Part shown: positions 41,491 through 61,521 of the stretch, in pieces
Layout of the letters: each line of letters begins with the position of its first letter
How positions within the stretch are numbered: position 1 is the first letter of the stretch
From: Escherichia phage ECBP1
Sequence record: NC_018854.1
DNA: 64,000 nt
Direction: 5' to 3' (one strand)
Translations under genes and position numbers: made by a program
Notes under the pieces: generated by a model
What the model was told of the DNA's origin: nothing
The model's database searches: none
The model's input: the letters and a program-made list of their open reading frames with translations, nothing else

Positions 41491-41512
41491 GAGAAAAGCC
41501 CCGGATGGGGCT
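41491..41512 (-). terminator. minus-strand intrinsic terminator upstream of vRNAP gene
   Basis: AGCCCC-ggat-GGGGCT with T-run on minus strand (TTTTCTC). Confidence 0.5.
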
Positions 41513-41530
41513 TTATTAGTATGTAAGATT

Positions 41531-47445: not shown

Positions 47446-47515
47446 TCCTCTTGGTTCAAAAAGAAACGGCCCACGGAGTTACCCCAGTGAGCCGTGTTGA
47501 ACTGTAGCTTATACG

Positions 47516-48157
47516 TTAATCGTTAAGGCTACCAGCAGCAATCTGTGCTTGAGCCAGCTGAGCCAATTCAGCTTCAGTCAACGGAGGCAGTACTTCAATG
47601 GAGAACTCACGTGCTTCTGTTGCACGAATGTCCGGTAAGCCATTCTTACCTTTACGAGTAGTAATGTTAATGAACTTACGTTCTTTAAGGAACTCGTAGA
47701 TACAGTACGGAATATGATAACCATTGTCGGTTACTTCACCGAACGGAACAAACTTACGTACAGTACCCATATATTCGTTAGCTACGGTGATAATTTCACC
47801 CGGCAGGTCTTTCTTCTTAGGGTCAAGGTTCTGGATACGTACACGAATCAGTCGAGTCTGTTCTGCACGAATCTTCTGACCCAGGGTCATCTTCTTAACA
47901 CCAGCTTCCTGCTTAGCACCCAATGGGTTAACAGCAGCTTCTTCTACTACTGGTTCATCTTTTACTTGTGCAGCTTCAATCTTCTCACGAAGCTTTTCAA
48001 CGGAAATGTTGTTAGAGAACTTAATATTCATCAACGTTGCACGTTGCTTAAGAACTTCAAGTTCGCTAGGCATTGCAATATCGTTAACGGTATCTTCGTT
48101 GCCCTGTACGTTCACTTCTACGTCAGTGGTCGGTTTATCGTTAATGCTCATGTTCAT
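47516..48157 (-). CDS. head-associated protein, unknown function
   Basis: 213 aa, directly downstream of capsid gene on minus strand. Confidence 0.4.
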   Translation of the reverse strand: MNMSINDKPTTDVEVNVQGNEDTVNDIAMPSELEVLKQRATLMNIKFSNNISVEKLREKIEAAQVKDEPVVEEAAVNPLGAKQEAGVKKMTLGQKIRAEQTRLIRVRIQNLDPKKKDLPGEIITVANEYMGTVRKFVPFGEVTDNGYHIPYCIYEFLKERKFINITTRKGKNGLPDIRATEAREFSIEVLPPLTEAELAQLAQAQIAAGSLND

Positions 48158-48224
48158 ATTTCCTGTGGTTCATTTAGTTTTATTAAGAGGGGGACTTATG
48201 TCCCCCTTGTTTTATTTCGGACTA

Positions 48225-49427
48225 TTACAGAGGAGCAACAGTCTTAATCAGAGCCAGACGTTCTGGACGTTTAACCAGGATACCATAGTACCACTTGATA
48301 GAACTGAAGCCAGTTTCGCCATACGGGTCATTACGGTCAGCAGTTTCTTTACCCGGCATCTTAGTCATGATGGTGAACTTAACAGACTTACCATCAGTCT
48401 GGAAGCCAATGGTAGAGAAGGAGTCATCACCAACTACCAGCATCGGGAATACGTCGTAGTGTTCCTGACCAGATACCATAGAGGTACGGTAACCCGGGTT
48501 AGTAGTAACCTGAGCACCAGCACCTGCCCAATGCAGCATCTCTGGAACCTGGATGATACGGAACTTATCAATACAACCAATTTCACCATTCATCAGAGTA
48601 CCAGCATCAGCATAGTGCTGAACTTCGATGAATGCTTTATTACCAAACAGGTCTTTCATCGCTTTCAGTTCTGGAACCAGTTCAGAACCAACGTACATTA
48701 CACGAGTACCACCGAGTACTTTGGTATCTGTCAGTTTAGAACCAGTGATGATAGTAGTCTGGGTCGGGGTACGGTTCTCAGTAAGAATCTGGTCAAGACG
48801 CATCAGGTTCTTATAAGAAACTACAGACGGGGTAGAACCTTCACCAGTAATGGTAGCATCAGAGACGGCAGCACCTGCATACAGTACAGTACCAGCAGCA
48901 GCCAGCAGGTCTTTCTGGAGAACAGCTTCAGTCAACTGTACAGCACCGTTCATCAGTTCACGAGACAGGTGTTCTTTCAGTTGGTCATCAGAATCAAAGT
49001 CCAGGGACTCTTGAGTAAATTCGTAGAAGAAGCCGAATTTATGAATAGAGCCTTCACGAGCCAGACGAGTAAAGCCTACACGGTTAACACGACCACCATT
49101 CTCTGACAGCAGAGGCAGTTTAGAAGTGATGTTACCAACGTCTTTGGAAGAGCCATAAAGGTTACCGTTAACGATGGTAGCACCATTAGCATCAATACCC
49201 TGGTCGTTAATGTTCTTATCGTCGAGCAAAGGAACATACTCGTACACCTTAACAGTCTTACCGTAGTTCTTCGGCATGTTAACGGTGTTAGCCAGAGGCA
49301 TAAAATACTGGTCTTTACGAGACTGAATAATAGCCTTCTTCAGCCAGTAATAGGTATTCATCTGGTCGGAACCAGCACCATCAATGCTAGATTTCTGACC
49401 GTCAATTGGAGCGTTATAGTTTAACAT
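48225..49427 (-). CDS. major capsid protein (N4 gp56-like)
   Basis: 400 aa, matching N4 MCP size, downstream of scaffold-like gene; strong RBS. Confidence 0.6.
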
Positions 49428-55001: not shown

Positions 55002-55211
55002 AAAATTACCGTAGTGATGTAGTTAGATTCCCCAACAGGGCCATATCATAAGATGACTCTTAGATAATACTTAGTATGATGGGATACATCCAGACATAGT
55101 GTCTGGTAGCAACCCATGGTGGATGGTATTCAGTTAGGTATGTTTAACATATCCGGGCAAGTAATTACCCTAACAGCAGTATCGGTTAGGGTAATGCAAA
55201 CAGTAACTCTA

Positions 55212-55237
55212 TATAAGAAAAGGCCCAAACTGGGCCT
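55212..55237 (-). terminator. minus-strand intrinsic terminator after tailspike gene
   Basis: AGGCCCA-aac-TGGGCCT with minus-strand T-run (TTTTCTT). Confidence 0.6.
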
Positions 55238-55246
55238 TAGTTTTAA

Positions 55247-57361: not shown

Positions 57362-57408
57362 ACGAACCTCTTTGTTTTTCTATTAAAGGTCACTTAGTGA
57401 CCCTTTGC

Positions 57409-59249: not shown

Positions 59250-60860
59250 TCACACAATGTATGAACGTAGGGGGTTAACACTATCTTCTTCTTCATCATC
59301 CCACATTGGGTCACCCTTATTATCCACCATAGTCATACCTGCTTGTGGTTTCCAAGGATTGAGATAACCCAGCATGGAGATAGTATCAATACAGTCATCC
59401 TTACCTTTGATTCCATTAATGGTAGCTAGTTTAATCTGGCCCATGAACAGACCCATAATAGTTGAATCTCTCAACTCTTCCGGGAAGTACATCTTACCAG
59501 CTTTGAACCATGGAACTACCAGGTTAAAGCGTGACAGCTTAGAGGTTACAGGACGTATACCCGGCTTACCACCTTCAGAAGATGCAAAGTTAAAGAAGAC
59601 ATTACGGTTAATCATTTCTTTCTGAAGGAGCGAAATGAATCCACCTTGCTGCCCTGTGATTTCGACACCAACGTTTTGTGGTTGGTATTCTTGAACCAGA
59701 CGGAACAGGTCATCAAAGTTTTTATCCATAAGCTGACGATTAGCCACACCATCAACCCAGAACCAATCTCCATTAGAACTATAAGCCCAAACTGATATGA
59801 CACTATAGTCACTGGTCTGTTTCTCCGATGTAGCAAAGTCAGTTGTAATATAATAGTTGTAGCAGGACTTCATCCTTAATAGTTGCTGTCTGCTATACCA
59901 TCTAATTTCACTATCCTGAACCAGTCTCTCATCTTCAGAGCTAATACGGAGCATAAGTTCCTGATAGAAGCCTGCCAGCTTACCCGTCTTAACTGCCATG
60001 TCATATTGGGCTTTGATGTAGTCGTAGGAGAAACGGTCATCCCATGCACCTTGAAATTCTTCCCTACTACAAGGGAACTTCTCACACACAGGCCATACGT
60101 TGACATCCCATGCACCAGACTCTACTGCTTCAATGATAATATCTTCCTTATTAAAGGGAGTACCATTGAAGATTACTTTACGACGGGTAGGATCAAGAGC
60201 ATGGTTCACACCTTTATAGACGGTATCCTTAATAGCTTCCATACTCGTCTTGGAGTTAGCATCACCATCACTAATCAAGTCATCCAGTACGCATAATGTT
60301 GGACGTTTACCATATATCTTCGTACCACGAAGACCTGTCTTAGCACCAAACAGCTTAACACCTAGACGATGTCCTTCTACATTACGAAACTCTAACAGGT
60401 TATCCGTAAAGGTAGCTTCAGGTATCCATTGCTGAAGGAACTCACTATTCTTGTAACGAAACTCAATGTTCTTACGTGCAGATTTAGCACCGTTATCCAT
60501 TGAGTCAGATACATAAATCATTCCTTCTACTTTACCCAGGCTTGGTAAATGCCCGAACACTGCCAGGAACAATGTAAAGTATTCCATGAATACAGCAGTC
60601 TTACCTGCACCACGGAAGCACAGATTAACTACATACTGGTTCGGGCTAATCATCTTATCCAACATTTTCAGGTGAACTGGAGGTGTTTTGTTGGATTCAC
60701 CCTCTTTACCATTAACCAACTTAATAAAGTTGGCAAAGGTAAGAGCAAACTGACTAGGAACATAGTTGGAAGAATTAAGGTGGGAGTAATCCACCTGGTC
60801 TAGCCATTCATCCAGTTCCTGCTTAATTAACTCAGACATCTGTAATGTCCTCATCTGCAC
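59250..60860 (-). CDS. terminase large subunit
   Basis: Walker A-like 'RGAGKTAVFMEY', Walker B 'LCVLDDLISDGD'; 536 aa with C-terminal nuclease-sized domain. Confidence 0.8.
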   Translation of the reverse strand: MQMRTLQMSELIKQELDEWLDQVDYSHLNSSNYVPSQFALTFANFIKLVNGKEGESNKTPPVHLKMLDKMISPNQYVVNLCFRGAGKTAVFMEYFTLFLAVFGHLPSLGKVEGMIYVSDSMDNGAKSARKNIEFRYKNSEFLQQWIPEATFTDNLLEFRNVEGHRLGVKLFGAKTGLRGTKIYGKRPTLCVLDDLISDGDANSKTSMEAIKDTVYKGVNHALDPTRRKVIFNGTPFNKEDIIIEAVESGAWDVNVWPVCEKFPCSREEFQGAWDDRFSYDYIKAQYDMAVKTGKLAGFYQELMLRISSEDERLVQDSEIRWYSRQQLLRMKSCYNYYITTDFATSEKQTSDYSVISVWAYSSNGDWFWVDGVANRQLMDKNFDDLFRLVQEYQPQNVGVEITGQQGGFISLLQKEMINRNVFFNFASSEGGKPGIRPVTSKLSRFNLVVPWFKAGKMYFPEELRDSTIMGLFMGQIKLATINGIKGKDDCIDTISMLGYLNPWKPQAGMTMVDNKGDPMWDDEEEDSVNPLRSYIV

Positions 60861-61521
60861 GTACTAGTTTAGAACCAGCAACCTCTTTGGTAGGTACACC
60901 ACTATTGATTGCATTAATTTGCTGCTCAGCTAATGCAGCAAGTGTTGCCTTGAGGTCAGTTAATCCAGAGTTCTCTCTCAAGTCCAGATTGATATTCGTT
61001 ACCTGGTCTTTTGGTTTAGCTAAGTGGGTAAGGATAGAGTTAGCTGCATCACATCTTACCTTCTCACTTGCTGCTGTAGTCATCAGTTCAACCTGAACAT
61101 TGATTGCCTTCTGATAATTATCCTGGTTCACAATCCACACTGGAACCAAACTTTGTTCCATGATGAGGTTAACTAACTTACCCCTGTGATAAGCAGATAC
61201 ATAAGCACTAATATCTTTCTCGCTGGTTCCTCGTGCAACAAGTTCTGCTTGTCGGTTAGGGAATGTCTTGAAGTAGGCTTCCTTATTGGAATAACCCATG
61301 TGTTTATAAGTCACATACTGAACTGCATTCATGTAGTCCTGTGTCTTAAACTTACCTTCCTTCATTACACCAGAGTAGGAGATAAAGTTTTCACGGAAGG
61401 ACTCAGCAACCAGTTGGTCTTGGGTTATGTTGTTGATCGTGTCTACCAACTCCTGGGTCACACTGTTTTTGAAGTTAGCAGGTAAGGCATTAACAATCTG
61501 CTGCTTAGTTAGTTCACTCAT
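60832..61521 (-). CDS. putative terminase small subunit (by position)
   Basis: 229-aa ORF immediately upstream of and overlapping the large terminase gene. Confidence 0.35.
   Translation of the reverse strand: MSELTKQQIVNALPANFKNSVTQELVDTINNITQDQLVAESFRENFISYSGVMKEGKFKTQDYMNAVQYVTYKHMGYSNKEAYFKTFPNRQAELVARGTSEKDISAYVSAYHRGKLVNLIMEQSLVPVWIVNQDNYQKAINVQVELMTTAASEKVRCDAANSILTHLAKPKDQVTNINLDLRENSGLTDLKATLAALAEQQINAINSGVPTKEVAGSKLVRADEDITDV

Follow-up and report, generated by a model that had tools for sequence, protein, structure and literature searches.

In the late arm of Escherichia phage ECBP1, a GC-rich hairpin separates the major capsid gene from the gene downstream of it, and its U-run faces the strand opposite to that of the surrounding genes; the question raised by this locus is whether such an element serves the capsid message, transcripts running antisense to it, or both. 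The window, i.e., the whole stretch of DNA analysed here (64,000 nucleotides, sequence record NC_018854.1), shares 99.9% identity with Escherichia phages Bp4 and PD38 and belongs with Gamaleyavirus, an N4-like group of the Schitoviridae. Genes are oriented on the plus strand to about 30.7 kb and on the minus strand from 30.7 to 61.5 kb, the latter arm including the 3576-aa virion RNA polymerase, and the local order gp57, capsid (gp56), hairpin, gp55, gp54 and gp53 is that of N4.

The hairpin, its two tails and its neighbours

The locus comprises the following features:

48225..49427, minus strand: major capsid protein gene, N4 gp56 homologue, 400 aa, with its stop codon at 48225-48227
48188..48207, both strands: GC-rich stem-loop with a GC core at 48189-48206; 8 Watson-Crick pairs on either strand
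48207..48217, plus (antisense) strand: U-run TTGTTTTATTT, tail score -4.54
48177..48188, minus strand: weak sense tail UCUUAAUAAAAC, tail score -3.14, background level
47516..48157 (ORF list) or start at 48151 (Bp4 annotation), minus strand: gp55-like gene, 211/213 aa, downstream of the hairpin
47457..47495, minus strand: canonical sense terminator after gp55, an imperfect hairpin (47466-47495) followed by UUUCUUUUU; the whole gap folds at -23.7 kcal/mol

The stem-loop AGGGGGAC-TTAT-GTCCCCCT consists of (i) the arm AGGGGGAC at 48188-48195, (ii) the loop TTAT at 48196-48199, and (iii) the arm GTCCCCCT at 48200-48207, with TGTTTTATTT (48208-48217) directly 3' of the plus-strand stem. A G.U wobble between 48187 and 48208 adds a ninth pair on the plus strand only, which comprises nine pairs, six of them G-C, closed by a 4-nt loop, whereas the minus-strand stem has eight. 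The plus-strand fold reaches -17.7 kcal/mol (z -3.75; equalled by 2 of 200 shuffles) and the minus-strand fold -16.0 kcal/mol (z -3.85; equalled by 0 of 200). In the capsid-gp55 gap of 67-73 nt, 21 nt separate the capsid stop codon from the GC core downstream of it. A sequence-only reading of this stretch had described a hairpin and tail at 48188-48217, between the capsid gene and the next gene; its sequence agrees to the base, and the element is indeed intergenic.

Folding leaves both flanks of the hairpin AU-rich and unstructured. Such flanks would suit a processing site, at which RNase E cuts the flanks and the hairpin guards the gp55 5' end or the capsid 3' end with no termination, a reading that we hold to be highly unlikely. 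RNase III acts on hairpins with some 20 bp of double-stranded RNA, about two turns of the helix, and the stem of 8-9 bp found here is too short for that enzyme.

The palindrome GGGGGAC-N4-GTCCCCC is single-copy in the window, with up to 3 mismatches allowed, which rules out a REP-like repeated palindromic element. Rfam covariance models find no match at E <= 1 between 44000 and 52000, and the GenBank entries for N4 and Bp4 list no regulatory feature where the hairpin lies. The consensus terminator scan calls the site on the plus strand only. Taken as a class, terminator-like sites show no clear enrichment between 40 and 56 kb (16 observed vs 10.4 +/- 3.3 expected), so the case for a real element is carried by the strength, position and conservation of this site, not by the scan count.

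Tails were evaluated with a TransTermHP-type score on both flanks of the GC core, with a permissive cut-off of -2.5; the GC-core definition of the hairpin was adopted since a minimum-free-energy finder pulled the A/U tracts into the stem and rendered tail counts meaningless. The plus-strand tail, TTGTTTTATTTCGGA, obtains a score equalled or bettered at only 0.16% of window positions, and because such tails are rare in the window the plus-strand U-run is not a compositional accident. For reference, the undoubted terminators of this phage display tails of -4.1 to -5.7 and back sides of about -3.3 to -3.6. The sense tail, UCUUAAUAAA (TCTTAATAAAACTAA as scored), has a score reached at 5-7% of positions, and nevertheless better than the cut-off: it begins UCUU and continues as an AU-rich stretch, weak rather than absent. 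The earlier statement that the minus strand lacks a U-run was essentially right, as the sense score is at background, although the tail is not empty. A terminator-grade tail is present on the plus side only, whereas a bidirectional terminator would have one on either side of its hairpin. Anatomically, the element is a plus-strand terminator within a minus-strand operon, with a predicted plus-strand RNA 3' end at about 48213-48217 and a predicted sense RNA 3' end, if any, at about 48180-48183.

Two readings that assign the hairpin to a single strand bear directly on these tails. In the first, the sense role has been lost in this lineage and the hairpin just blocks plus-strand transcription into the capsid gene, as would fit a terminator-grade tail and a scan call confined to the plus strand, and a canonical sense terminator that now stands after gp55. 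We regard this as quite unlikely, considering that a hairpin of -16 kcal/mol forms in the abundant sense mRNA regardless and that the sense UCUU and AU-rich tail passes the permissive cut-off. The second, the main rival, is unlikely but a serious contender: read on the sense strand, the bases of the plus-strand U-run are an A-rich 3'UTR, AAATAAAACAA, and the U-run would be a by-product of it, with the hairpin acting on the capsid mRNA only, by leaky termination or by stabilising its 3' end, and no plus-strand RNA arriving. In agreement with this, constraint on the A-tract is not demonstrable within the genus: tests for selection on either tail among 22 Gamaleyavirus sequences give P values of 0.20 and 0.39, the divergence being too shallow and the tests underpowered. 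On the other hand, a score of -4.54 or better occurs at just 0.5% of antisense positions in intergenic gaps.

Downstream of the hairpin, the true start of the gp55-like gene is likely the ATG at 48151, preceded by the ribosome-binding site AGGA (48161-48164) within the motif TGAACCACAGG (48162-48172); its product is 35% identical to the LUZ7 'N4 gp55-like protein' (E 9e-29). The sense terminator at 47457-47495, missed by the consensus scan, precedes TGAACCAAGAGGAA and the start codon of gp54; capsid transcripts that pass the hairpin probably end at this terminator. In addition, the motif TGAACCA(A/C)AGG(A) occurs on the minus strand at 48162-48172 and 47449-47461, ahead of the start codons of gp55 and gp54, as their ribosome-binding context. 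TGAACCA(A/C)AGG was rejected as a repeated signal, with 5 matches vs 2.7 expected in the window, not an enrichment.

Conservation of the post-capsid stem-loop

The comparison set comprised 71 IMG/VR loci encoding capsid relatives of 44-100% identity, reduced to 57 non-redundant loci with downstream sequence. A GC-rich hairpin is present on the sense strand, 7-29 nt past the capsid stop codon, in 57/57 of these N4-like loci, a positional conservation that excludes a chance palindrome. About 35 distinct stem sequences were recorded with 95-100% of positions paired, a count that is partly circular because it was made on hairpins picked as best; the MAFFT alignment moves some stems by one column and was not used for pair counting. 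The fairer test is against random 95-nt control windows from the same loci, which score a median of 12 (95th percentile 20) vs 26 for the hairpins. About 35 different stems at one position make the hairpin a conserved sense-strand element, and scores above the control windows make it a conserved element of the capsid transcript. Judged by these sequences, ECBP1 carries the Gamaleyavirus version of a stem-loop found between gp56 and gp55 in all N4-like phages. This family-wide conservation and the canonical sense terminator one gene further on are both additions to the sequence-only reading.

The tails behave differently from the stem. With terminator grade set at a score of -3.8 or better and tallied over 54 lineages, the sense tail qualifies in 13/54 (e.g., TTTTTT in L023 and LUZ7, TTTTCTTTT in L033 and TTTTT in L038), the antisense tail in 11/54, eight of which are Gamaleyavirus, and neither tail in 32/54. 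Canonical sense U-runs are found in L018, L021, L023, L033, L038, L039, L048, L064 and LUZ7, whereas Gamaleyavirus is the only lineage in which the antisense side alone is terminator-grade; in the related locus L061 both sides count as terminator tails (-4.09 and -3.54). On this sequence comparison the U-run is optional, not conserved, and the hairpin itself is what is conserved. Both the conservation of a hairpin in sense context across the family and the 32 lineages with a U-run on neither side count in favour of the main rival, in which only the capsid mRNA is served, and the lack of a U-run in most lineages also counts in favour of processing. Canonical terminator anatomy in many relatives, LUZ7 included, stands against processing.

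The N4 hairpin is GGGGAGG-GAAA-CCTCCCC followed by the sense tail TTACTTTATG, so that the position occupied by the weak ECBP1 tail holds TTACTTTATG in N4, TTTATTAACG in L061 and TTTTTT in LUZ7. A T-rich antisense flank is shared by Gamaleyavirus, L061 and the KP8-like Klebsiella phages, not by N4, and its sequence differs across these three diverged lineages (TTGTTTTATTT, ATTTTTTAATT and GTATTTTATTA). Antisense T-richness kept in different sequences argues against a U-run that is a by-product of the 3'UTR.

Among distant N4-like lineages, L019, L020, L025, L037, L040, L059 and L068 display a post-capsid stem of 17-24 pairs with a U-run on neither side, predicted to be long enough for an RNase III substrate rather than a terminator, and these possible substrates lend the processing reading some weight. 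In other N4-like lineages the words of the gp55/gp54 ribosome-binding motif, GAACCAAGG and CCTTGGTTC, make up the base of the post-capsid stem or lie on its other side (L013 vs L014).

Variation within the genus was examined in 22 Gamaleyavirus sequences (L001-L005, L044, L056, L062 and L075-L088), in which 4/4 loop columns and 0/14 stem columns are variable, compared with 25% of third codon positions. Six loop forms occur among these close relatives (ATAA, TTAT, ATTA, TAAT, TAGT and GTAA); they include the reverse-complement pairs ATAA/TTAT and ATTA/TAAT, with both orientations on the same flanking haplotypes, which suggests recurrent small inversions (flip-flop) of a perfect palindrome. A loop that is hypervariable and flips is not read in a sequence-specific manner. 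This bears on a further possibility, that the palindrome serves the virion or middle RNA polymerase as an N4-type DNA hairpin promoter: the LUZ7 middle promoters are described as GC-rich hairpins with 3-4 nt in the loop and 6 bp or more in the stem, a profile that the ECBP1 hairpin resembles, but N4 promoters carry 3-nt loops with an essential central purine, vs 4 nt here, and six loop forms with orientation flips in 22 close relatives argue further against it. In addition, no transcription start site adjoins the orthologous LUZ7 hairpin (Table S2/S4 data). The N4-type hairpin promoter was rejected for this loop and for the lack of an adjoining LUZ7 start and, together with a chance palindrome, is extremely improbable.

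Mapped RNA 3' ends in LUZ7 and the possible supply of plus-strand transcripts

The closest experimental counterpart is found in Pseudomonas phage LUZ7, in which RNA 3' ends were mapped by ONT-cappable-seq (Putzeys et al. 2022; PMC9163698; bioRxiv 10.1101/2022.03.18.484859, Table S3). The LUZ7 capsid gene is orf79 (59978-61171, minus strand) and the N4 gp55-like gene is orf78. Two ends fall between them: (i) T56 (59943, minus strand), predicted to be intrinsic, which leaves a 35-nt 3'UTR after orf79 and has an efficiency of 0.65 at 20 min; and (ii) T57 (59974, plus strand), with an efficiency of 0.39 at 10 min and 0.44 at 20 min (Table S3), while predicted intrinsic plus-strand terminators of LUZ7 have efficiencies of 0.68-0.95 at 10 min (Table S3). 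Both flank one hairpin, GGGGAGG-GAAA-CCTCCCC; T56 is the last U of a U6 run, which disfavours a processing origin, and T57 lies 8 nt past the stem without any U-run. The authors allow that processing may produce some of the mapped 3' ends (PMC9163698), a point in favour of the processing reading. T56 and T57 are 31 nt apart, within the 4-40 nt by which bidirectional pairs were defined (PMC9163698), and we infer that they constitute such a pair, though between co-directional genes.

The transcription units are consistent with use of the hairpin on both strands in LUZ7. TU70, a monocistronic capsid mRNA from the late promoter PL23, ends at T56, and TU71 is the read-through product that also covers orf78 (Tables S2/S4); TU69, a 214-nt antisense RNA from the weak start PL22 (59760, plus strand), ends at T57. 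Moreover, middle-phase Watson-strand transcripts span the whole genome of both LUZ7 and LIT1, running antisense over the late structural cassette (PMC9163698).

The structural correspondence between the two phages is close. T56 and T57 occupy the orthologous slot between the capsid and gp55-like genes, among co-directional late genes, and the LUZ7 hairpin comprises a 7-pair GC-rich stem and a 4-nt loop about 20 nt past the stop codon, as is likewise the case here. Besides these similarities, important differences exist: the LUZ7 hairpin has its U-run (U6) on the sense side and none on the antisense side, a polarity that is reversed in ECBP1; in LUZ7, 3' ends are mapped on both strands at 6-8 nt from the stem, whereas those of ECBP1 are predicted; and the host is Pseudomonas instead of E. 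coli, with a capsid identity of 54%. That the LUZ7 orthologue ends plus-strand RNAs argues against a hairpin that serves the capsid mRNA only, and that its U-less side still yields about 40% efficient 3' ends (T57) argues against one that acts solely on antisense transcripts.

The apparent lack of a source of plus-strand RNA in ECBP1 favours the main rival. Consensus and position-weight-matrix scans of the plus strand between 46600 and 48180 disclose no sigma-70-like promoter that stands out, and the search within gp55 for an antisense promoter resembling LUZ7 PL22, by the same two methods, returns background-level matches only. According to the ORF list, no plus-strand gene of the late arm lies upstream of the hairpin, and a strong bidirectional terminator at 30685-30710, where the two gene arms converge 17.5 kb before the hairpin, should stop most plus-strand read-through before it arrives. 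A literature search found no transcript maps of coliphage N4 or of G7C-like phages. As a separate observation, sigma-70 consensus-like sites are strongly depleted over the whole window relative to shuffles (11 vs 29.5, 12 vs 29.9, 20 vs 45.8 and 20 vs 28.6 expected), which fits selection against spurious initiation by the host polymerase.

Proposed function and related hairpins

Weighing this evidence, we lean, with a confidence a little above even, towards a bidirectional 3'-end element, leaky for the capsid mRNA and efficient against antisense transcripts. The sequence-only reading had offered two options: the element ends antisense transcripts, or it stabilises the 3' end of the capsid message as a hairpin. 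Each of them is supported, the functional evidence coming from homologues: the former through the terminator-grade plus-strand U-run, LUZ7 T57 and the antisense transcripts of LUZ7 and LIT1; the latter through the hairpin at every compared locus, the sense U-runs of distant relatives and LUZ7 T56/TU70. The two acting together are most likely, in preference to an either/or choice. From the homologues we infer that either activity would operate in this phage and that plus-strand transcripts would reach the site.

The proposed mechanism of the bidirectional element is as follows. On late minus-strand RNA made by the host RNA polymerase, the hairpin would form at the 3' terminus of the abundant capsid mRNA and act both as a leaky terminator and as a barrier to 3' exonucleases. 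Sense termination would be leaky because only UCUU and an AU-rich stretch stand behind the stem and, given that the sense tail is at background, it may be negligible; much sense transcription would continue via gp55 to the terminator at 47457-47495. The virion contains 535 copies of the capsid protein vs roughly 1-43 of the downstream gene products, a stoichiometry that leaky termination at the capsid end suits. On the plus strand, the 9-pair stem followed by UUGUUUUAUUU would constitute a full intrinsic terminator just before the capsid gene, which would halt antisense transcripts, presumably those that N4-like phages produce over their late block during the middle phase, before they enter it. 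In LUZ7, where predicted intrinsic plus-strand terminators reach the efficiencies given above, such signals would stop the middle-phase polymerase, and Rho is not known to act on a T7-like polymerase. Since the U-run faces the antisense strand, antisense transcripts are probably stopped efficiently, and the capsid mRNA weakly ended or stabilised.

A more specific and doubtful extension of the bidirectional reading is that the U-run was shifted to the antisense side under selection, not by mere decay, so that the element insulates the capsid gene from middle-phase RNA polymerase II, which Rho would not restrain, entering it antisense while capsid transcripts are freed to reach gp55. If true, the U-run shift would mean that a terminator within an operon had switched polarity during evolution.

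Among known systems, T-phi of phage T7 lies after gene 10, has its U-run on the sense side and works on the phage polymerase. The ECBP1 element resembles it as a hairpin right after the top-expressed structural gene, with partial read-through to genes needed at lower levels; unlike T-phi, it has only a vestigial U-run on the sense side, and the host polymerase is presumed to carry out late transcription, as in N4. Bidirectional intrinsic terminators, for which the LUZ7 authors cite Ju, Li and Liu (2019), likewise consist of one hairpin with an A-rich 5' flank and a T-containing 3' flank, readable both ways. The classic examples lie between convergent genes and have U-runs on both sides, whereas the ECBP1 hairpin stands in a co-directional operon with a good U-run on the antisense side only.

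From its sequence, the element belongs to a known class, being a terminator hairpin after the capsid gene and the orthologue of LUZ7 T56/T57; its novelty lies in the reversed polarity of the U-run, a minor lineage-specific variation on an ordinary element. The post-capsid hairpin is conserved while the side of the U-run varies by lineage, so a terminator on the seemingly wrong strand of a late phage operon is not necessarily a quirk of annotation. Should the antisense activity prove real, the site would offer (i) a handle on how N4-like phages control pre-late antisense transcription across their structural genes and (ii) a compact E. coli terminator part, strong one way and leaky the other; if not, it is routine punctuation of gene expression.

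Other hairpins of the window complete the picture. Those at 30151-30171 and 55220-55238 are terminator-like on both strands and lie between co-directional genes, and were counted for the bidirectional reading; a weak hairpin at 57388-57402 was flagged on the antisense strand only. On the minus strand at 41495-41514, the hairpin AAAGCCCC-ATCC-GGGGCTTT, followed by TCTCTT just upstream of the virion RNA polymerase gene, is likely an attenuator, as predicted from its sequence, before a protein needed at 1-2 copies per virion. Finally, the 245-nt non-coding gap of the late arm at 55002-55246 contains inverted repeats, including TTACCCTAAC...GTTAGGGTAA and CCAGACA-CTA-TGTCTGG, and may be a late promoter or regulatory region.
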